Shown here in pieces: positions 47,028 to 63,689 of a stretch of 64,000 nucleotides of DNA; positions within the stretch are counted from its first letter, which is position 1, and the number at the start of each line of letters is the position of its first letter. The stretch comes from Eledone cirrhosa (taxonomy: Eukaryota), in the NCBI GenBank assembly GCA_964016885.1, contig OZ024743.1:77686001-77750000 (forward strand). Direction: 5' to 3'. Both the position numbers and the translations under genes were made by a program. Under the pieces are notes generated by a model. The model was given only the letters and a program-made list of their open reading frames with translations. It did no database searches and was not told the origin of the DNA.

Positions 47028-47059
47028 TGTATATGTATATATATATATATGTTTGTATA

Positions 47060-49026
47060 TATATCATCATCATCATCATCACCGTTTTACGTCCGTTCTT
47101 CCATGCTAGCATGGGTTAGAGGGGTTGTCCTGTTGTGGGCAGTGTCTGGTCGGCTGACCATGCCTTGCTCATACAGGAAGTGATTTTGGCTTGATTTCAA
47201 CAACTGGATGCCCTTCCTAACACCAACCTCATTTACAGTGAGTGCTTGGTGCTTTTTTGCCGTGGCACCTCCACGACCACCTTGCAGTGGGAGGGTGTGG
47301 GGGCATATTGTCTATATGCTTTAGCTTTGGCTTGTACCCATGGGAAGTCGGGTACTCTGTATTACTGCATGACGCCAGAGGTCACGGTCGTGTGTCATCA
47401 CCTTTGAGAGGTGCAATTGGGTAAGGTCGGCTTTTATCACCTCATCCCAGGTCTTCTTGGGTCTCCCCACTCCGCCATTTCCATTGACTTCTAGTTCTCT
47501 GCACCTTTTTATGCAATTGTCATCCTTCATATGCATCACATGTCCATACCAACCAACCGCCTCTCCTGCACACAGCATTTGATTCCTCTTATGCTCAGTC
47601 TCTCTCTCAATTCATTTATGCTTTGTCGTTCGCGTATATTACTATTACACATCCATCGGAGCATGCAGGCTTCATTTCTTTCTAATCTACGTAAGTCTTC
47701 CACCCTCAGCGCCCAGGTCTCACTACCATGTAACATTGCTGTTCGGATACACGCATCATACAGTCTGCCTTTCATTTTGAGGGAGAAGCCTTTTGCAGCT
47801 AGCAGTGGTAGTCGTTCCCTAAACTTCTTCCATCCCGTTCTTACCCTAGTTATTGTACTTTCTGAACACCCACATCCGCTGCTAATTCGGTCACCTAGGT
47901 AGCAGAAGCTGTCTACTGTTTCTACAGAGCCCTCCCAGAGATTGATGGTACTTGTTTCCTGTGGCTGTTTGCTGCTTGCTGTCCCAGCACAGCTGCTGCA
48001 TGTGAAGCCTACATTCTTAATTAAGCTTCCTGAGATCCCGCTACATCTCTTGTGTACCCATTGATTGCATTTGGGGCAGAGAATGGAGTTCCTACCTACA
48101 CCTTTCCTACATACTGAGAAAGGCCAATTCCCTGAGGGGATCTGGGTTCTGTTTTCTCGTCTACTTACAAGGACATTAGTCTGTCATGTTGTCTTTGAGA
48201 CCCTTTCTTTCTAGTCCCTGCTTCCAAGTTTGGAATTTCTTCTCTAGTTCTACCATAGATTCAGCTATAAGTGTGAGGTCATCAGCATACAGGAGTTCCC
48301 ATGGGCATCCCGTCTTAAACTCCACCGTTATTGCCTGCAGGACTATGATGAACAGGAGAGGGCTAAGAACAGAGCCCTGGTGGACACCAACCTGTACGCT
48401 AAATTCCTCGCTATACTCATTGCTAATCCTGACTTTGCTGACTGCTCCCCTATACATGGCTTGTACAGCTTTCACGAGCCATTCATCTACTCCTAGTTTT
48501 CTAAGAGCCCACCAGATATATGTATATATATGTGGTTGGTGTTAGGAAGGGCATCCAGCTGTAGAAAACCCGCCAGACAGTCCTATGCGAGCAAGACAAT
48601 CACTCTTGCCTCAAGTGGGAAAACTCCCGTCCAAACCCATGCAAGCGTGGAACACGGACGTTAAACGATGATGATGATGATGATGATGATGTATGTCTAT
48701 GTATGTCTATGTATAAGGGTATAAGAGGGATAAGTTGTGGTGTGCAGGAGACAAGGCTGAGATGGTATGGACATGTGATGCGCATGGAAGACGACCGCTG
48801 GGTAAAGAAGTGCCAAGAAATCCCAGTAGAAGGAAGACGCAGTAGAGGAAGACCACAAAAAACATGGGCGGAGGTGGCGAGAGTAAACCTCAGATCGCTA
48901 AGCTCACGGAGGAGATGACGAAGGACCGTGACAAGTGGAGAGATGCTGTACCCGTCTTCATATCTTTGATTGCCTTACTTATTATACTACCCTCGACTAA
49001 CACTGCTGGTCCCTCTATTGGGTCGA
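47060..49026. mobile_element. Mosaic of RTE fragments (minus 47060-48516, plus 48530-48950, minus 48950-49026); repeated at ~57190-59146
   Basis: ORFs 48176-48475 (LYADD), 47536-47775, 48703-48918. Confidence 0.85.
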
Positions 49027-49101
49027 TGTATATATATATATATATATATGTATTAAGAGAGTAAAACAAAGAATCCTTTAATACATCAAAAGTTTTTATT
49101 A

Positions 49102-49139
49102 GCCAACAATGTTTCGTCCTATTAAGGACTCATCAGGGC
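49102..49139 (-). ncRNA. Minimal type I hammerhead ribozyme (left arm)
   Basis: Minus strand gcc-CTGATGA-gtcc ttaata ggac-GAAAC att GTT-ggc. Confidence 0.8.
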
Positions 49140-49469
49140 AATCAAAACAACAAGAGGTAATTTCGGCAGATACAAGCCAGAAACTCTGAAGAATATGGAG
49201 TTTACATACACTAATGTCTTACAAAGATATACGATAATAAAAATGAAGATAAAAATAATAAAATTATAATAACTAAGGATGTAGATAACATTAAGAACCA
49301 TATTACAAATATAGTCCAAAGTCACCAACTTAAATCTAAACAAATTTGGTTATATAGAGCAGGAATTATATATAACACAGTATAATACATTATAATAATA
49401 ATATATCTATACCAACACTGAAATTCCAAATCAAAAATCAAAAGGTACAATATATACATGTATATATGT

Positions 49470-49513
<44 letters not shown>

Positions 49514-50505
49514 TACAATACACATATCTATTTTCTATTACACAGAAATTAAGCCCTATTGGAAGTTTGAACATCAAAAATATCAAAAATAAGCATGGTA
49601 ATAGTGAAAATAATGCTAATACATCTACCCAATATACATGAGGCAATAATTACAAGAAACACTTATAATAAATAATAAACAACAAAATTATATAATACAA
49701 TACAATATAATAAAGTAGAATATATATAATCTCCGGTTAATTTACAGAAACAATATAGATGTTACAGTGAAATACAATAAGTTGTTAACATTATATTAAC
49801 AATTACCATAATCAATATGTACAACATGATTCATACTGGGTTACATAATAAATGGGGAAATATCAATCATATAATATAATACAATAATACTCAAAAAAAC
49901 TATATTGGTACAGGGAACAATTATGATGTTACAGAAAAAATATGTTGTTACAGAAAAAATATAGACATCTAACATGATATGTAAAGTCTAAATACCATAA
50001 TGTTACATATTACAATATTAAAATATTAAAATATTAAAATATTAAAAAAATATAAAGTTTAACTATCTTAATGTTATATATAATAAACGGTAAGTAATAA
50101 GGATCTATTTCATAATGTAATATATTTTAAAAATTGGCATATAATATATAAATAAATACTTATAATTTCAAGGTTAGTAGACAGACATGTGTGGATGAGT
50201 GAACGAAGCCAGACAGTGAGTAGTAAATAAAACAGATAAATACAATCAACCGGAAATTACAAAACAAAGCAAATGTATACACACTTAGGCCTCGCGTGCA
50301 TTAAGAAATTTGGTAAACACCAAGGAAAACGATCATTTTAAATGACTCCAAACCCTATCTGATAAATTAATATTAAAAATATCAAACCCGTCCGATAAGG
50401 TAGTATAAAATTAGCTATAGTCTAAGTCATTAAAGTATATAAACTTTTAATATAAACTATAAGATATAATGCGCTAGAGAGGTAGAATTCTTAAACCTAA
50501 TATGT

Positions 50506-51531
50506 TTGGCTGGATCTTGTTCTAGTAATGTTGCTCCTACTGATCCTATCATTGGCCTTAATCCTCTTGTAGGGATTCTGGACAACAGTGGATCTACTAG
50601 AGGTAGAAACTATAATAGGCATAATGTAATTATGGCTGATTCTATGAATGCGGCTTCAAATATTCCCGATAGTAACCCTAGTCTCGACGGTGGGACTTTT
50701 GATAGAGGTAGGGTCGATAAGAATAAAAATAAAAATAGAAGGCGATTGAATACTTATTTCAACCCGCCATATAACCAGGATGTATCAACTAATATCCCTA
50801 GGTCTTTCTTCACTATCCTGGAGAAAAATGTCCCCCCTTCTCACAAATACCATGGTATTTTTAATAAAAATGTTATTAAACTATCATTCTCTACCACCCC
50901 TAATATTAGTTCTCATTTAGCTAGCACTAATAATAGGAAGATTAGGGATGGATTCTCCTCTCTGCAGACTAATAGTCTGAATGCATCGGAAAATGCTTTA
51001 CCACCAGAACAGTCCTTATCTAATAGAGGTCCTAAGTGCAATACATCACCACTCGAGCCAACCAATAACACCCGGAAGTGCAATTGTAGAGTGAGTGCTA
51101 ACTGCCCTCTAAACGGTAACTGCCTTTCTAAGAACATTGTCTATGCTTGCGAGGTTATAACTAATTCCTCTAAAGGAACATATATAGGATCTACTTCAAA
51201 CACTTTTAAGACTAGGTTTAACTCTCATATCTCTAACTTCAAACATATTAGGTTTAAGAATTCTACCTCTCTAGCGCATTATATCTGGGATCTTAAGGGA
51301 GCTTGTATACCATATAGCCTTAACTGGAGTTTAGTAGCACGATCTAACCACCTTTCTGCACATAGTAAGTTTTGTAATTTCTGTATACTTGAGACACACT
51401 CTATTATTTTCTCTAGCGTACCCTTACTGAATAGAAAGTCTGAGATATTCTCTTCTTGCCCCCATGCCATCTCTAATTCTTACTTTTATTATAAACCCAA
51501 ATGTTCTAGTAGTACAAATTGTACCCATTAG
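50506..51531 (+). CDS. PLE-type GIY-YIG endonuclease with upstream CxC-x5-C-x5-C linker; no RT
   Basis: YFNPPY, CNCRVSANCPLNGNC, IVY...YIGST...FKTRFNSH, CNFCILE, LLNRKSE; the frame is closed upstream by TAA at 50467. Confidence 0.85.
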   Translation: MAGSCSSNVAPTDPIIGLNPLVGILDNSGSTRGRNYNRHNVIMADSMNAASNIPDSNPSLDGGTFDRGRVDKNKNKNRRRLNTYFNPPYNQDVSTNIPRSFFTILEKNVPPSHKYHGIFNKNVIKLSFSTTPNISSHLASTNNRKIRDGFSSLQTNSLNASENALPPEQSLSNRGPKCNTSPLEPTNNTRKCNCRVSANCPLNGNCLSKNIVYACEVITNSSKGTYIGSTSNTFKTRFNSHISNFKHIRFKNSTSLAHYIWDLKGACIPYSLNWSLVARSNHLSAHSKFCNFCILETHSIIFSSVPLLNRKSEIFSSCPHAISNSYFYYKPKCSSSTNCTH

Positions 51532-53023
51532 CAGATATATTCCATTACTTAGTTTTTTGTTTGGGTTCTTTTGTTTGCCAGCATTAATGTTATCATTGGT
51601 TTTTGATGACTCTTCATTCTAGATCTCATAATCATTTGGCCACTGTACCATATCTATGTCTTCACTATTACACCTTGTTAGTATACATAAGATTACACAC
51701 GTTATTATCTTTATATATTCTTTTATTATCATTAACTTTAATTTTTAATTTTAACTTTATTTTTATTTTTAATTCTATTTATATTTTTATTTCTAAGTCT
51801 ATTCTGATTTATCTATCGATCCCCCCCCCCCATGCACGCATAAACTTATTGTCAACCCCTCTAGATTGAATATGATTATATTAAACCCCCCCCTCTTTTA
51901 TGCTCTGTTCTATTATTTATTATAGTATATCGAATATATTTTATGCCACTTTGCACCCTCCATATATTTTGTCAATTCCGTCCCCATTAGCCTACCTTAA
52001 CTCTACTTAAGTCAGTTTTTTAGATATCGTTGCGTGTATGATAGTGTAATTTTATTCCTTTTTGTAAACATTTGTAACGATACATTAAAGTTTATATACT
52101 TTAATGACTTAGACTATAGCTAATTTTATACTACCTTATCGGACGGGTTTGATATTTTTAATATTAATTTATCAGATAGGGTTTGGAGTCATTTAAAATG
52201 ATCGTTTTCCTTGGTGTTTACCAAATTTCTTAATGCACGCGAGGCCTAAGTGTGTATACATTTGCTTTGTTTTGTAATTTCCGGTTGATTGTATTTATCT
52301 GTTTTATTTACTACTCACTGTCTGGCTTCGTTCACTCATCCACACATGTCTGTCTACTAACCTTGAAATTATAAGTATTTATTTATATATTATATGCCAA
52401 TTTTTAAAATATATTACATTATGAAATAGATCCTTATTACTTACCGTTTATTATATATAACATTAAGATAGTTAAACTTTATATTTTTTTAATATTTTAA
52501 TATTTTAATATTTTAATATTGTAATATGTAACATTATGGTATTTAGACTTTACATATCATGTTAGATGTCTATATTTTTTCTGTAACAACATATTTTTTC
52601 TGTAACATCATAATTGTTCCCTGTACCAATATAGTTTTTTTGAGTATTATTGTATTATATTATATGATTGATATTTCCCCATTTATTATGTAACCCAGTA
52701 TGAATCATGTTGTACATATTGATTATGGTAATTGTTAATATAATGTTAACAACTTATCATTGTATTTCACTGTAACATCTATATTGTTTCTGTAAATTAA
52801 CCGGAGATTATATATATTCTACTTTATTATATTGTATTGTATTATATAATTTTGTTGTTTATTATTTATTATAAGTGTTTCTTGTAATTATTGCCTCATG
52901 TATATTGGGTAGATGTATTAGCATTATTTTCACTATTACCATGCTTATTTTTGATATTTTTGATGTTCAAACTTCCAATAGGGCTTAATTTCTGTGTAAT
53001 AGAAAATAGATATGTGTATTGTA

Positions 53024-53057
<34 letters not shown>

Positions 53058-53387
53058 ACATATATACATGTATATATTGTACCTTTTGATTTTTGATTTG
53101 GAATTTCAGTGTTGGTATAGATATATTATTATTATAATGTATTATACTGTGTTATATATAATTCCTGCTCTATATAACCAAATTTGTTTAGATTTAAGTT
53201 GGTGACTTTGGACTATATTTGTAATATGGTTCTTAATGTTATCTACATCATTAGTTATTATAATTTTATTATTTTTATCTTCATTTTTATTATCGTATAT
53301 CTTTGTAAGACATTAGTGTATGTAAACTCCATATTCTTCAGAGTTTCTGGCTTGTATCTGCCGAAATTACCTCTTGTTGTTTTGATT

Positions 53388-53425
53388 GCCCTGATGAGTC
53401 CTTAATAGGATGAAACATTGTCGGC
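53388..53425 (+). ncRNA. Minimal type I hammerhead ribozyme (right arm)
   Basis: gcc-CTGATGA-gtcc ttaata ggat-GAAAC att GTC-ggc, then AATAAA; predicted cleavage after 53422. Confidence 0.85.
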
Positions 53426-53865
53426 TAATAAAAACTTTTGATGTATTAAAGGATTCTTTGTTTTACTCTCTTAATTTTTCGGCTCTGTTTAACTGCATTG
53501 AGCTATACCTTTTACTGTCATTTCTATAATACGAAGAGGGTGTTTGACTCAAACACGCTCCAGTATTCTAATCCTTATATATATATGTATGTATGTATGT
53601 ATGTATCTCTATGTATATATATATATATGTATGTATGTATGTATCTCTATGTATATATATATATATGTATGTATGTATCTCTATGTATATATATATATAT
53701 ATGTATGTATGTATGTATCTCTATGTATATATATATATATATGTATGTATGTATGTATCTCTATGTATATATATATATATATGTATGTATGTATGTATCT
53801 CTGTATATATATATATATATGTATGTATGTATGTATCTCTATGTATGTATGCATCTCTATGTATG

Positions 53866-53898
<33 letters not shown>

Positions 53899-53917
53899 GT
53901 ATGCATCTCTATGTATG

Positions 53918-53948
<31 letters not shown>

Positions 53949-54035
53949 GTATGCATCTCTGTGTATATATATGTATATATATATCTATATGTGTGTGTAT
54001 GTATGTATCAATTCCTTCTCTCCTATTTGTTTCAG

Positions 54036-54110
54036 CAGATAATGGACTTCTGCAACCAAATAGTTCTCTGAACCAGCAGGAACTCGGAGGAATGGAGTTA
54101 GATAATAGAG
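54036..54110 (+). CDS. Exon F: cytoplasmic, paralogous to exon E
   Basis: tttgtttcagcag NAGNAG acceptor (start 54036 or 54039), gtaagt donor, phase 1-1: [23 protein letters not shown]. Confidence 0.7.
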
Positions 54111-54434
54111 GTAAGTATCAAAAATGTTATAATGTTCTATCAAATTTGAAGTGTATATGGCTGTGTATATATAAATATATATGCAGAGGTTATATTTAAT
54201 TTGTTGGTATTCAACAAGCTTTAAAATGTTATCACTAACCAGGAAGCTCCAACCGTTAAGGTTGTCTTTTTTTCTGGCTATGTGAATATTTATTTCTAAA
54301 ACAAATCTGTATTTTATCTGATGAAAGCGCACCAAAATATGCCTTGGTTGCCCTTGAAATATGTATAATAAAATAAATATGGTTTTATAAATATAGTTTC
54401 CATTTATTAATATATTGTATAAAAATATATATAT

Positions 54435-54466
<32 letters not shown>

Positions 54467-54489
54467 TGTATGTATGTATGTATGTTATC

Positions 54490-55890
54490 TCTTTCTCTTA
54501 ATTTCGAGTATATTTTTTTTTTGACCGGCCACCTTCCAGTTGGCAAGGTTGTAAAAGAAACGAAATTGTCATCCCTTGAATTGCAAGAATGTTATGCAAA
54601 TTTTGAAGGTGCCAGCTATTGCAGCCATTTGTAGACTATGAATTAGGGAGCTGCGCTTTTTGTCCGCAAATCCAAGTTAAGTCATACTTTGGTCCAAGCG
54701 GGTTGGTATATAACCCGTAGCTCCAATAATGATGGGTATGAAGCTAAAGGTGTATCTTGGATACTGGATTTGTAAACTCCTCATCAATGGTCCGTAGATG
54801 TCCTCCTGTATTTTTCTGACAACGTTTACATCAAGTGGGCAGCTGATCTCCACAACAGAACACGTTTTCAATGTGTGGTCCCAAACAACAATATCAGGCC
54901 GGTTGTGCTTTAATTTGGTGGCAGTTTTTTTTTTCAGGTTCCACCAGTATTCCTTAGTGCCATTTGTCTCAATATATTCTTCCTCGTTTGTTGTTAATTT
55001 TGTTTTTCGAAGTGCGTTCCAGATGGTTCTAGCTATCCCATCGTGTCTCATGGGGAGGTAGTAGCGAGATGATATCCTTTCGCAGCTGGCAACAATGTGA
55101 CTTACATCCTCGATCTTTGTTTTACATAGCCTACATTTATTGTCAGCTGCTGGCCCTCCTTTTTGTGCAGCAGATATTTGGGAGGAGTTCTTGTTCCTGT
55201 ATTGCATAGAGATATCCCTCAAGGTGTGATGTCATAAACTTGTCGGAACTCCATGCCAGGCTTTTTGAGTGGTTTATCCCCTCTATGGTCTGTGTTTTAC
55301 GCCTCAAGTATCCATGCACAACTTTTTCTGTAAATTGGTCAATTTTTTTATCTTGTTTGAACATTGAATAGGATCTTCCGATTTCTCTGGGTGAGAGATT
55401 TATATCAGGCTTTATTCCATATCTCTCCTCCAGATCAGTCGCTATTCTAATGATATTTTTTTTTTTCATGTTCTTAAACCTGAGCAAGATGGTTGCCAAC
55501 CTTTTTCCTCTGTTGAAGGTGTTGCTTCAGTGTTACTATCCGGGTCTCATATGTTGTTAATATTTTAGACCCCGGCCCCTTCCTTGCGGGAGAAGTATAG
55601 CCTATCCATATCACCATTGATGTTAAAGTTCCCAGTAACACTGAGAAGTTTTTGAGTTCTAACATCCATCTCACTTAGTTCTTGCAATGACCAGTTCAGC
55701 AGGACAAATGTTGGCGTTAGAATTGGTACAGCATAAGTATTGTGGGCAATGTATTTGTTGTATGCTGACAGTTCTGATGACCATATTTTCTTTACTCTTC
55801 TGAGGTATTCAGTTCTGGTTCTCTCCTTATTTATGGGTCCATCATATCTGACATTCTCATCCTGTCCAAGATATCTGTAGTTGTCATCTC
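54490..55890 (-). mobile_element. R4/Dong-like non-LTR element fragment (Zn knuckle plus restriction-like endonuclease)
   Basis: ORF 54677-55222 CRLC...HIVASC...RHD...HNRPDIVV...VVEISCP. Confidence 0.8.
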
Positions 55891-56899
55891 TAGATTTCTA
55901 GAGGAGAGCACAGCCTCTAGACAAACAGTTCATAAAAGACATACCTCGATGATTATATATACGTCAGAACTAAGGGCAGTTAATAGTCTGTTTTTAAAGC
56001 CAGACACCAGGTGGCGTCATCTTGCTACAATAGTTTCAAGCTAATTTGTTGTTAAAATGTAAATAATTCTAAATAGACTATGAAATAAGTAATATAATTG
56101 TTTCTACTTTTGGCACAAGACCAGCAATTACCCAGTGCATTACTGGTACTTTATTTTATCGACCCCGTAAGGATGAAAGGCAAAGCTAACCTTGGCCGGA
56201 TTTGAATTCAGACCATAAAGGGCCGTAACTCTTTACTGCAAAGCATTGCGTCTGACACTCTACCGATACTGCCAATCCACCGCCCTTGAAATAAGTAATA
56301 TAATATTTCTTTATTATAACTTTAACATCTATCTTAAATTTTAAATAGTATCTAAGTGAATTAAATGTAACATAAAATGATAAAATAGGCTACAATATAT
56401 ACCTCTTTTCCTTTGAACTAATTGATTAATCCGGTAATATGATACCCTAGCCAGTTAAAACAAATAGCAACGCCAACTGCTAAATATTTTTCCACTCGTA
56501 TAATATCAACTAAAATACAATTATAAATATAAACTAAGATAAATTGGCTACGAAATTAGTAATTAAAATTTTCTTTAATAGTTACATTATAACTTCAGCA
56601 TCTTTAAATAAATATCTAAAATTTTGAAAGTTTTTCGATATAGTATCTAATTTAATCTAACATAAGTGATAAATAAATAAACTAACGGTCCATACTTGCT
56701 TTCTTTTGATCTATTTGACCAATCTGGTAACCTCATACTCTAGCCAGTTCAAAAACACCAACACCAACTGTAATATTTTTCCCACTCATATAATATCTTC
56801 TGTGACGATGTTTTTTCCTAGCATATGCTTGCCGGTCACCAAACTAAATAGCTTGTCTCAGACCGCCTGCATATCAAATGATATCTACATCTCCTGTGG

Positions 56900-56969
56900 A
56901 TTTTATCTGACGAGAACATGTTTCGACTTAAATATAAGCCATACACCTTCGAAATACGTATAATAAAAT
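56900..56969 (+). ncRNA. Hammerhead-like motif (more degenerate duplicate at 42857-42921)
   Basis: attttat-CTGACGA-gaa...ttc-GAAA-tacgta-TA-ataaaat; 7-bp stem I, palindromic stem III, weak stem II. Confidence 0.5.
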
Positions 56970-57146
56970 AAATAGGGACGGGCTAAAGTAACTGTTTTTT
57001 TTTGTTTATTATCATACACAATGTTTAAGCAGGTAATTAAAATCCTAGTCTTCAGAACATTTATATAGATACATAACTATTGACTGTGTCAGTGACATCA
57101 TATAAAAAAGTAGGAGTTGCAAAAAGATATGCTACAGGATTTACAC

Positions 57147-57180
<34 letters not shown>

Positions 57181-59169: not shown

Positions 59170-59587
59170 ATTAAGAGAGTAAAACAAAGAATCCTTTAAT
59201 ACATCAAAAGTTTTTATTAGCCAACAATGTTTCGTCCTATTAAGGACTCATCAGGGCAATCAAAACAACAAGAGGTAATTTCGGCAGATACAAGCCAGAA
59301 ACTCTGAAGAATATGGAGTTTACATACACTAATGTCTTACAAAGATATACGATAATAAAAATGAAGATAAAAATAATAAAATTATAATAACTAAGGATGT
59401 AGATAACATTAAGAACCATATTACAAATATAGTCCAAAGTCACCAACTTAAATCTAAACAAATTTGGTTATATAGAGCAGGAATTATATATAACACAGTA
59501 TAATACATTATAATAATAATATATCTATACCAACACTGAAATTCCAAATCAAAAATCAAAAGGTACAATATATACATGTATATATGT

Positions 59588-59621
<34 letters not shown>

Positions 59622-62600
59622 TACAATACACATATCTATTTTCTATTACACAGAAATTAAGCCCTATTGGAAGTTTGAACATCAAAAATATCAAAAATAA
59701 GCATGGTAATAGTGAAAATAATGCTAATACATCTACCCAATATACATGAGGCAATAATTACAAGAAACACTTATAATAAATAATAAACAACAAAATTATA
59801 TAATACAATACAATATAATAAAGTAGAATATATATAATCTCCGGTTAATTTACAGAAACAATATAGATGTTACAGTGAAATACAATGATAAGTTGTTAAC
59901 ATTATATTAACAATTACCATAATCAATATGTACAACATGATTCATACTGGGTTACATAATAAATGGGGAAATATCAATCATATAATATAATACAATAATA
60001 CTCAAAAAAACTATATTGGTACAGGGAACAATTATGATGTTACAGAAAAAATATGTTGTTACAGAAAAAATATAGACATCTAACATGATATGTAAAGTCT
60101 AAATACCATAATGTTACATATTACAATATTAAAATATTAAAATATTAAAATATTAAAAAAATATAAAGTTTAACTATCTTAATGTTATATATAATAAACG
60201 GTAAGTAATAAGGATCTATTTCATAATGTAATATATTTTAAAAATTGGCATATAATATATAAATAAATACTTATAATTTCAAGGTTAGTAGACAGACATG
60301 TGTGGATGAGTGAACGAAGCCAGACAGTGAGTAGTAAATAAAACAGATAAATACAATCAACCGGAAATTACAAAACAAAGCAAATGTATACACACTTAGG
60401 CCTCGCGTGCATTAAGAAATTTGGTAAACACCAAGGAAAACGATCATTTTAAATGACTCCAAACCCTATCTGATAAATTAATATTAAAAATATCAAACCC
60501 GTCCGATAAGGTAGTATAAAATTAGCTATAGTCTAAGTCATTAAAGTATATAAACTTTTAATATAAACTATAAGATATAATGCGCTAGAGAGGTAGAATT
60601 CTTAAACCTAATATGTTTGGCTGGATCTTGTTCTAGTAATGTTGCTCCTACTGATCCTATCATTGGCCTTAATCCTCTTGTAGGGATTCTGGACAACAGT
60701 GGATCTACTAGAGGTAGAAACTATAATAGGCATAATGTAATTATGGCTGATTCTATGAATGCGGCTTCAAATATTCCCGATAGTAACCCTAGTCTCGACG
60801 GTGGGACTTTTGATAGAGGTAGGGTCGATAAGAATAAAAATAAAAATAGAAGGCGATTGAATAGTTATTTCAACCCGCCATATAACCAGGATGTATCAAC
60901 TAATATCCCTAGGTCTTTCTTCACTATCCTGGAGAAAAATGTCCCCCCTTCTCACAAATACCATGGTATTTTTAATAAAAATGTTATTAAACTATCATTC
61001 TCTACCACCCCTAATATTAGTTCTCATTTAGCTAGCACTAATAATAGGAAGATTAGGGATGGATTCTCCTCTCTGCAGACTAATAGTCTGAATGCATCGG
61101 AAAATGCTTTACCACCAGAACAGTCCTTATCTAATAGAGGTCCTAAGTGCAATACATCACCACTCGAGCCAACCAATAACACCCGGAAGTGCAATTGTAG
61201 AGTGAGTGCTAACTGCCCTCTAAACGGTAACTGCCTTTCTAAGAACATTGTCTATGCTTGCGAGGTTATAACTAATTCCTCTAAAGGAACATATATAGGA
61301 TCTACTTCAAACACTTTTAAGACTAGGTTTAACTCTCATATCTCTAACTTCAAACATATTAGGTTTAAGAATTCTACCTCTCTAGCGCATTATATCTGGG
61401 ATCTTAAGGGAGCTTGTATACCATATAGCCTTAACTGGAGTTTAGTAGCACGATCTAACCACCTTTCTGCACATAGTAAGTTTTGTAATTTCTGTATACT
61501 TGAGACACACTCTATTATTTTCTCTAGCGTACCCTTACTGAATAGAAAGTCTGAGATATTCTCTTCTTGCCCCCATGCCATCTCTAATTCTTACTTTTAT
61601 TATAAACCCAAATGTTCTAGTAGTACAAATTGTACCCATTAGCAGATATATTCCATTACTTAGTTTTTTGTTTGGGTTCTTTTGTTTGCCAGCATTAATG
61701 TTATCATTGGTTTTTGATGACTCTTCATTCTAGATCTCATAATCATTTGGCCACTGTACCATATCTATGTCTTCACTATTACACCTTGTTAGTATACATA
61801 AGATTACACACGTTATTATCTTTATATATTCTTTTATTATCATTAACTTTAATTTTTAATTTTAACTTTATTTTTATTTTTAATTCTATTTATATTTTTA
61901 TTTCTAAGTCTATTCTGATTTATCTATCGATCCCCCCCCCCCATGCACGCATAAACTTATTGTCAACCCCTCTAGATTGAATATGATTATATTAAACCCC
62001 CCCCTCTTTTATGCTCTGTTCTATTATTTATTATAGTATATCGAATATATTTTATGCCACTTTGCACCCTCCATATATTTTGTCAATTCCGTCCCCATTA
62101 GCCTACCTTAACTCTACTTAAGTCAGTTTTTTAGATATCGTTGCGTGTATGATAGTGTAATTTTATTCCTTTTTGTAAACATTTGTAACGATACATTAAA
62201 GTTTATATACTTTAATGACTTAGACTATAGCTAATTTTATACTACCTTATCGGACGGGTTTGATATTTTTAATATTAATTTATCAGATAGGGTTTGGAGT
62301 CATTTAAAATGATCGTTTTCCTTGGTGTTTACCAAATTTCTTAATGCACGCGAGGCCTAAGTGTGTATACATTTGCTTTGTTTTGTAATTTCCGGTTGAT
62401 TGTATTTATCTGTTTTATTTACTACTCACTGTCTGGCTTCGTTCACTCATCCACACATGTCTGTCTACTAACCTTGAAATTATAAGTATTTATTTATATA
62501 TTATATGCCAATTTTTAAAATATATTACATTATGAAATAGATCCTTATTACTTACCGTTTATTATATATAACATTAAGATAGTTAAACTTTATATTTTTT

Positions 62601-63134
62601 TAATATTTTAATATTTTAATATTTTAATATTGTAATATGTAACATTATGGTATTTAGACTTTACATATCATGTTAGATGTCTATATTTTTTCTGTAACAA
62701 CATATTTTTTCTGTAACATCATAATTGTTCCCTGTACCAATATAGTTTTTTTGAGTATTATTGTATTATATTATATGATTGATATTTCCCCATTTATTAT
62801 GTAACCCAGTATGAATCATGTTGTACATATTGATTATGGTAATTGTTAATATAATGTTAACAACTTATCATTGTATTTCACTGTAACATCTATATTGTTT
62901 CTGTAAATTAACCGGAGATTATATATATTCTACTTTATTATATTGTATTGTATTATATAATTTTGTTGTTTATTATTTATTATAAGTGTTTCTTGTAATT
63001 ATTGCCTCATGTATATTGGGTAGATGTATTAGCATTATTTTCACTATTACCATGCTTATTTTTGATATTTTTGATGTTCAAACTTCCAATAGGGCTTAAT
63101 TTCTGTGTAATAGAAAATAGATATGTGTATTGTA

Positions 63135-63168
<34 letters not shown>

Positions 63169-63689
63169 ACATATATACATGTATATATTGTACCTTTTGA
63201 TTTTTGATTTGGAATTTCAGTGTTGGTATAGATATATTATTATTATAATGTATTATACTGTGTTATATATAATTCCTGCTCTATATAACCAAATTTGTTT
63301 AGATTTAAGTTGGTGACTTTGGACTATATTTGTAATATGGTTCTTAATGTTATCTACATCATTAGTTATTATAATTTTATTATTTTTATCTTCATTTTTA
63401 TTATCGTATATCTTTGTAAGACATTAGTGTATGTAAACTCCATATTCTTCAGAGTTTCTGGCTTGTATCTGCCGAAATTACCTCTTGTTGTTTTGATTGC
63501 CCTGATGAGTCCTTAATAGGATGAAACATTGTCGGCTAATAAAAACTTTTGATGTATTAAAGGATTCTTTGTTTTACTCTCTTAATTTTTCGGCTCTGTT
63601 TAACTGCATTGAGCTATACCTTTTACTGTCATTTCTATAATACGAAGAGGGTGTTTGACTCAAACACGCTCCAGTATTCTAATCCTTAT
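59170..63689 (+). mobile_element. Fold-back Penelope-like element, copy 2
   Basis: Arms 59170-60560 and 62194-63586; HHRs at ~59220-59257 (minus) and 63499-63536 (plus). Confidence 0.88.
60617..61642 (+). CDS. PLE-type GIY-YIG endonuclease, copy 2
   Basis: Identical to 50506-51531 except RLNTY>RLNSY. Confidence 0.85.
   Translation: MAGSCSSNVAPTDPIIGLNPLVGILDNSGSTRGRNYNRHNVIMADSMNAASNIPDSNPSLDGGTFDRGRVDKNKNKNRRRLNSYFNPPYNQDVSTNIPRSFFTILEKNVPPSHKYHGIFNKNVIKLSFSTTPNISSHLASTNNRKIRDGFSSLQTNSLNASENALPPEQSLSNRGPKCNTSPLEPTNNTRKCNCRVSANCPLNGNCLSKNIVYACEVITNSSKGTYIGSTSNTFKTRFNSHISNFKHIRFKNSTSLAHYIWDLKGACIPYSLNWSLVARSNHLSAHSKFCNFCILETHSIIFSSVPLLNRKSEIFSSCPHAISNSYFYYKPKCSSSTNCTH

Follow-up and report, generated by a model that had tools for sequence, protein, structure and literature searches.

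Penelope-like elements and the Eledone locus

The Hydra clade of Penelope-like elements (PLEs) is characterised, in those sections of PMC8557442 that treat it, by RWK and DKT motifs, a CxCX5C linker, the lack of a CCHH motif, the presence of CxxC and CxH, canonical hammerheads and (TA)n targets. The same sections state that a PLE tail often occurs at one end only, and section 15 names the formation of inverted pseudo-long terminal repeats (pLTRs) and tails in PLEs as an open question. Here we describe a PLE insertion in Eledone cirrhosa, found within a stretch of 64,000 nucleotides (nt) (assembly GCA_964016885.1, contig OZ024743.1, positions 77,686,001 to 77,750,000 of the forward strand) that is referred to throughout as the window. 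The feature is best read, with a probability of about 0.85, as one recent 5'-truncated Hydra-clade insertion in (TA)n that has an inverted copy of its 3' end placed head-to-head, the two parts likely being complementary DNAs (cDNAs) primed by a reverse transcriptase (RT)-endonuclease. The narrower statement, that it is a truncated fold-back copy of an autonomous PLE family, is close to certain.

The object itself is ordinary, its form being already on record. Penelope-13_HM (Repbase), as presented in Files S1 and S2 of PMC8557442, has an incomplete protein, an inverted 5'-truncated copy (nt 1-966) at its 5' end, a hammerhead on both strands and a (TA)n target, which is the architecture seen in the window; compared by that description only, it is another family with another hammerhead sequence and an arm of 966 nt rather than 1396 nt. 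Hydra-1_Obim from Octopus bimaculoides (2507 bp) shares the clade motifs and by eye is similar in its N-terminus and RT blocks, but it has another hammerhead, the part of PMC8557442 describing it notes no pLTR, and it is a different family. In PAc, a Poseidon element of Anolis (PMC11167929), targets are AT-rich, the tail is bounded by two RT start sites a short way past the pLTR, as here, and hammerhead cleavage is unnecessary for insertion in vitro; PAc belongs to another clade, however, and its tail is inside the start of the open reading frame (ORF), whereas that of the Eledone family is in the 5' untranslated region (UTR). Pen2a, Pen3 and Pen4 of Adineta vaga, going by the portion of PMC3846280 that deals with them, likewise have inverted pLTRs with the tail optional on one, microhomology at 5' junctions and asparagine-rich in-frame inserts between RT and endonuclease, but they are other families, and self-priming on an antisense template is favoured there.

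Compared by motifs and by eye, the Eledone family fits the Hydra clade of C-terminal endonuclease-positive (EN+) PLEs; it is a new family within a known clade, and the window copy is ordinary in kind. A first, sequence-only reading of the window had guessed at this clade from the CxC linker and the missing CCHH motif, a guess that holds on RWR, DKT, CxCX5C, CxxC/CxH, the hammerhead and the TA target. At the family level a single ORF encodes a PLE-type RT and then a GIY-YIG endonuclease (the 897-aa protein P0001, with seven intact loci; Pfam GIY-YIG below cut-off), and copies show the partial-tandem pLTRs, inverted 5'-truncated copy and optional tail expected of PLEs. IRWR and ADKT, in a part lost from the window copy, occur in all 7 of the 7 intact frames, aligned relatives having RWK or RWR. 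The linker reads CNCRVSANC in the window and falls in a conserved column block of the alignment of relatives, and the window ORF (FCNFC..LETH..LLNRKSE..CPH) has CxxC and CxH around a conserved E and N. In other clades a cysteine pair lies between the two GIY-YIG halves, and no such pair was found in the aligned rows. The order of RT and GIY-YIG in one ORF, YRDD and, close to the 3' end, a type-I hammerhead whose loop III is 1 nt are all likenesses to the clade as the consulted sections of PMC8557442 present it, and on visual comparison with the alignment there the RT blocks go with the Hydra and not the Neptune rows. Against that account the family is longer (4840 nt and 897 aa, as opposed to 'generally <3 kb', a non-diagnostic tendency), has an apparently neutrally drifting insert of ~150 aa and a ~1.9-kb 3' UTR, and bears a tail of ~100 nt rather than 30-40 bp.

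The insertion and its full-length relatives

The window copy is front-truncated and folded back, and its donor family is young and ribozyme-carrying, with RT-encoding full relatives elsewhere in the same genome. Near-perfect inverted arms of ~1.4 kb (98.9% reverse-complementary over 1399 columns) enclose a spacer of 1639 nt, with a tail on the right side only and (TA)n on either flank, as the sequence-only reading had described. The arms differ at three substitutions, one 3-nt indel and 10 nt of (CA)n, and within the (TA)n repeat the limits of a target-site duplication are not definable. Both arms face outward: the left one begins at the tail-less end of the element (end B), and the body ends at the tail end (end A), 103 nt farther along a tandem template. 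The body starts at unit position 1843 and is met by a 47-nt inverted piece, overlooked in the first reading, that is the reverse complement of 51240-51286. Since a 5' pLTR, a 5' UTR and a native start codon are all missing, the copy is predicted to have been dead on arrival, incapable of transposing alone.

The single intact ORF that had been reported is present, with 341 codons from 50506 (353 aa from stop to stop, 50470-51531; 299 aa from the first ATG, at 50632), and the in-frame stop noticed just upstream of it sits in the 47-nt piece. Its GIY-YIG identity stands weakly (Pfam E=0.0015, 19.2 bits, below the 22.6 cut-off). The ORF corresponds to residues ~555-897 of P0001, which is taken from locus L031, with 325 of 343 residues identical. 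The odd N-terminus is indeed unlike an RT thumb, as had been remarked, and is explained as the second half of a family-specific low-complexity insert of ~150 aa between the RT thumb and the FNPPY post-thumb domain, inside which the window copy starts. When aligned with 20 of 120 listed database relatives, the closest carry 10-60 aa at this position and most none.

The sequence-only reading had offered two origins, an endonuclease-only non-autonomous PLE or a 5'-truncated, inverted copy of a full PLE, and had named continuation of other copies upstream into an RT, with variable truncation points, as the pattern that would tell for the second. That pattern was found, which refutes the endonuclease-only origin and leaves the ordinary one, a truncated and inverted copy, as the right one. 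A search of the species' own genome with the spacer, in which the best 40 of 1709 candidates were scored, gave 30 loci, 4 of which are tandem units of the window insertion; all 26 non-duplicate loci continue past 50504 upstream in family sequence, over lengths from 22 nt to at least 1500 nt, with differing breakpoints, and the longer ones run in frame into an RT with YRDD (L011 is cut by the start of its contig). An intact frame of 915-916 codons with a start, RWR, DKT, YRDD and the endonuclease is present in 7 of 35 longer loci (L031-L034, L061, L062, L064). An exact probe for the window junction has four genomic matches, all of them tandem units; as the junction is thus restricted to units of one very recent duplication, it is a single insertion that was later multiplied by tandem duplication.

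Six copies without RT and thumb start at unit 1656, 1779, 1820, 1821, 1843 and 2034, and their 5' structures differ, including those at the adjacent boundaries 1820 and 1821; several independent insertions with one RT-less 5' boundary, as an endonuclease-only family should have, were not found among the loci. An apparent common boundary, most matches beginning at query position 55, was rejected, this being only where the window's private junction ends. In 24 of 26 other loci (top-scoring matches, biased to young copies) the frame is open for at least 341 codons from the start point of the window ORF, so that the open frame in the window does not point to special selection. Before a genome-wide search is made, a fold-back whose endonuclease is intact can be mistaken for a dedicated non-autonomous element.

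The full unit, for which the natural copy L031 serves as reference, has a 5' UTR, an ATG at 177, a stop at 2870 and a long 3' UTR with the hammerhead and AATAAA near its end. In front of full-length copies stands a 5' pLTR, a partial repeat of the 3' end in direct orientation, ~200 to ~2600 nt long, and the 103-nt tail is the first ~100 nt of the unit read past the 3' end, a sequence that continues into the 5' UTR at no fewer than 18 genomic places. Insertions end at two fixed points, B (pLTR end) or A (tail end), with a shorter tail of 77 nt once or twice; exact junctions with (TA)n, counted as lower bounds, number 371 for A and 586+44 for B (the 44 being a minor phase), against 0 for reversed-pattern controls. 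The shorter tail, at L051 and L052, stops at unit 77 rather than 103, within the tail stem-loop; the two loci, 99.9% alike, may represent a single insertion that entered the assembly twice. In a subfamily represented by five loci (L066-L070), ~220 nt of the 3' UTR (unit ~3076-3298) are internally duplicated. At L035 a second, divergent RT frame with ADKT (8557-9360, minus strand) adjoins the full-length copy and is probably another Hydra-like family in the same genome.

The family is of modest value in itself, as a young and unusually long Hydra-clade member with at least seven intact ORFs. The ratio of nonsynonymous to synonymous polymorphism (pN/pS) for variants common to at least three copies is 0.21 in the RT (10 synonymous, 8 nonsynonymous), 0.20 in the post-thumb domain and linker, 0.16 in the endonuclease (7 and 4) and 0.99 in the insert (6 and 21), whilst private variants give 0.52-0.86; the ratios rest on small variant counts and fit purifying selection on transposing lineages, with the insert as a drifting spacer. 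The RT was recognised by YRDD and alignment blocks, Pfam detecting none in P0001 or four relatives. A phmmer search with the family protein returned no relative of solved structure, a cluster look-up yielded no informative names, an Atlas look-up gave only unnamed or HTH_animal/GIY-YIG clusters, and the nearest database protein is 45% identical across the RT half.

Fold-back ends, hammerheads and the route of insertion

The part worth following is a rule in how fold-back ends pair, which likely records how PLEs insert. Fold-backs account for 21 of the 36 long loci, and both outer ends are readable in 19 (L058 and L060 being unreadable); all 19 pair an A with a B, the arm starting from B in 11, as in the window, and from A in 8. 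A search for tailed ends returned 30 loci, 9 of them repeats of earlier insertions, and among the 21 new ones every fold-back with a readable far end (9/9) had B there, L086 and L096 having run off the locus. An exact-end count over the listed ends on C1 and C2 up to 294 Mb (62 A, 109 B) found 26 outward-facing pairs within 12 kb: 25 A+B, 1 B+B and 0 A+A (P ≤ 4e-7 if ends are independent). In the union, after removal of 4 overlaps, 49 of 50 fold-back end pairs consist of one tailed and one tail-less end. Furthermore, polymorphic minority alleles are common to the two arms of one insertion in 87 cases and discordant in 5 (26 pairs, 0.95), as against a mean sharing of 0.12, and a maximum of 0.32 in 1000, for re-paired control arms. 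From one-tailed pairing together with donor alleles common to both arms we infer two coupled priming events on one template; a search of the open literature found no count of PLE fold-back end pairing or arm alleles.

Such a route has precedent in a PLE protein that nicks and extends both target strands, with an RT that starts at two adjacent internal sites bounding the tail and an RNA that is uncleaved by the hammerhead (PMC11167929). The two nicked (TA)n strands would prime a cDNA each, at A in one case and at B in the other, along a single RNA of more than unit length, which could be a tandem read-through or a circle, a circular template having been proposed in the relevant part of PMC4209133; both cDNAs would be supplied by the RT-endonuclease of a full-length copy. 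In the window the A-primed cDNA would have run at least 3 kb. The B-primed cDNA, on the same RNA, would have reached 1396 nt before a slip gave rise to the 14-nt filler; it would then have moved ~0.8 kb upstream, to unit 2625, for a further 47 nt of copying, and paired through GTTTG with the A-primed cDNA at unit 1843. This last pairing would have set the 5' boundary and cost the copy its RT. The same junction scar could also be left by microhomology-mediated end joining as a repair route. The odds on this step of one RNA and two primers seem to us evenly balanced. The wider proposal, that PLE fold-backs arise by coupled twin priming on a single RNA from two start sites ~100 nt apart, one per nicked strand, is more tentative, and we would place it a little below that. 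If it is true, each fold-back has exactly one tail and both arms carry the alleles of the same donor, and a young family of hundreds of copies with intact ORFs is a natural record of twin priming.

Several points weigh against coupled twin priming. In PMC11167929 the start site was alike on both strands, and coupling was not examined there. Most pairs of the exact-end count were matched by coordinates only; the loci are the top-scoring 40 candidates per search, or exact matches, and lean toward young copies. L102, a diverged copy (79-83% identity), is a genuine B+B fold-back, outside which, at a distance of 300 nt, lies a separate tailed piece; the arm of L093 starts at neither A nor B. Common arm alleles could also arise if two RNAs came from one donor locus, or if the arms had undergone gene conversion, and snap-back self-priming accounts for symmetric hairpins just as well.

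As first reported, a hammerhead with a canonical core is present in each arm, in a type-I layout whose stem I ends 50 nt from the arm end, and AATAAA follows each (53427, and 49095 on the minus strand). The Rfam RF00163 matches (49098-49142 minus, 29.1 bits; 53385-53429 plus, 26.9 bits) are both below the gathering score of 34, and 71 of 88 family copies, from 58 loci, have exactly the same layout, GCC/CUGAUGA/GUCCU-UAAU-AGGAC/GAA/ACA-U-UGU/C/GGC. Both window hammerheads depart from the family form by a single C>U substitution, unremarked in the first reading, which on the right falls in stem II (53411) and on the left at the cleavage site (49105). A 1-nt loop closes the 3-bp stem III, and PLE motifs of this make are described, in the section of PMC4209133 concerned, as dimer-type and weakly active. 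The cleavage site lies 53 nt inside end B and 154 nt inside end A, so that neither end is the cleavage site, and since both arms hold sequence from both sides of it the copied template would have been uncleaved or re-ligated. A single transcript carries only one sense hammerhead, with a predicted pairing to the other arm of -211.7 kcal/mol as opposed to -17.1 for its own fold, and in a read-through transcript it is predicted to be locked in the arm duplex. The idea that ribozymes trim the fold-back transcript is not upheld, given cleavage sites that do not define the ends and a sense hammerhead predicted to be paired; the hammerheads would seem to be passengers in the element's 3' end.

Self-priming, whether by snap-back or on an antisense template and with the tail asymmetry coming from endonuclease resolution of a DNA intermediate, has been put forward in parts of PMC3846280 and PMC8557442, and it would lead one to expect both common arm alleles and near-symmetric hairpins. 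Such hairpins exist: L077, L084, L092 and L101 are short non-coding near-symmetric fold-backs with arms of 246-606 nt and one hammerhead per arm, confusable with miniature inverted-repeat transposable elements, and among 9 short fold-backs there are 4 whose two arms have end points coinciding to within 4 nt. However, 8 fold-backs combine a short inverted arm that has the tail with a far longer body that lacks it, a combination out of reach of simple snap-back, in which one of the two would be missing from the first cDNA. In the window, the 47-nt piece has the polarity of the arm and lies upstream of the point where the arm stops, which fits a forward jump on a sense template. We consider self-priming less likely than not, though worth keeping in view beside coupled twin priming.

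An assembly artefact or a rearrangement after insertion, as the source of the fold-back or of its four-fold repeat, is very improbable. Assembly error could mimic four tandem units that differ so little, and in contigs and RAD reads from public sequencing runs, which are not shown to come from the same individual and are not used as evidence, family variants and read ends at 53473-53476 were seen whilst a record across the window junction was not found; but the arms differ at 3 substitutions and 2 indels, and dozens of unrelated loci have fold-backs with precisely these outer ends. An artefact could plausibly account for how many tandem units there are, but not for the fold-back. Equally far-fetched is the notion that the locus serves the host and is retained for that, be it to make long hairpin RNA that silences the family or to provide a stand-alone nuclease. 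In its favour are a near-perfect stem of 1.39 kb, the presence of four tandem units and, 460 nt downstream on the same strand, a putative host exon of 75 nt; but with 3 substitutions separating the arms over 1389 nt the insertion is very recent, a sign of selection was not seen and many comparable fold-backs lie elsewhere in the genome. Least credible of all is an endonuclease-only PLE family that borrows RT in trans and has its fold-back transcript trimmed by its own ribozymes, for although the window's endonuclease frame is open with only 3 private codon changes among 36 copies, and non-autonomous PLE derivatives are known (the Chlamys passage of PMC8557442, and a retrozyme preprint in the part bearing on this), the junction is confined to one duplicated locus, an open frame is the norm, 5' boundaries vary among RT-less copies, there is no 5' pLTR or 5' UTR upstream in the window and the sense hammerhead is predicted to be locked.

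Feature positions and surroundings of the insertion

Table 1. Features of the fold-back insertion and its repeat, in window coordinates.
Feature	Position	Strand	Remark
(TA)n target microsatellite, left flank	49028..49051	.	from sequence
Inverted 5'-truncated copy of the element's 3' end, from tail-less end B (unit 4839 to 3442)	49052..50447	-	
Left-arm type-I hammerhead	49102..49139	-	cleavage triplet GUU, family form GUC
14-nt filler, in part a re-copy of the arm's final bases	50448..50461	.	
47-nt inverted endonuclease-coding fragment	50462..50508	-	in-frame stop at 50467-50469
5-nt microhomology GTTTG, common to the inverted fragment and the start of the sense body	50504..50508	+	
ORF remnant: second half of low-complexity insert, post-thumb domain, CxCX5C linker, GIY-YIG endonuclease	50506..51531	+	linker at 51079-51105
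~1.9-kb 3' UTR / pseudo-LTR region ending at end B	51532..53475	+	right arm 52087-53475
Right-arm type-I hammerhead	53388..53425	+	cleavage after C53422; G-U replaces G-C at stem II base; AATAAA 53427-53432
Tail (end A): ~100 nt from the beginning of the 5' UTR, which in full-length copies comes after the 5' pLTR	53476..53576	+	same sequence runs into 5' UTR and start codon in L031-L037
(TA)n / (TATG)n microsatellite, right flank	53577..54010	.	
Second copy of the whole insertion with the same flanks, next unit of the ~10.1-kb tandem duplication	59170..63687	+	0-3 substitutions over 4.5 kb between units

The insertion with its flanks is repeated once more in the window, which had been overlooked, and twice more beyond it, making four near-identical units of ~10.1-11.7 kb in the assembly. 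This array spans 47030-57151 and runs onward to ~91000 in window coordinates (L042-L045), with a partial fifth unit, and is either a very recent segmental duplication or an assembly artefact.

Two unrelated pairs of long inverted repeats also lie in the window, 26789-29228 with 31079-33517 (2.4 kb, 98%) and 37342-38124 with 38362-39144 (0.78 kb, 99.7%), the first of which involves the window's abundant non-LTR-like repeat. An Rfam scan returned matches to microRNA families that were rejected as microsatellite noise. Fragments of a non-LTR reverse transcriptase frame in both orientations, which we take to be RTE-like, flank the insertion site at 47536-48974. On the other side, at 54036-54110 on the plus strand, the putative exon of 75 nt has a pyrimidine tract and AG before it, GTAAGT after it and an open frame, and is identical in all four units; if it is real, the element sits in an intron of a host gene.

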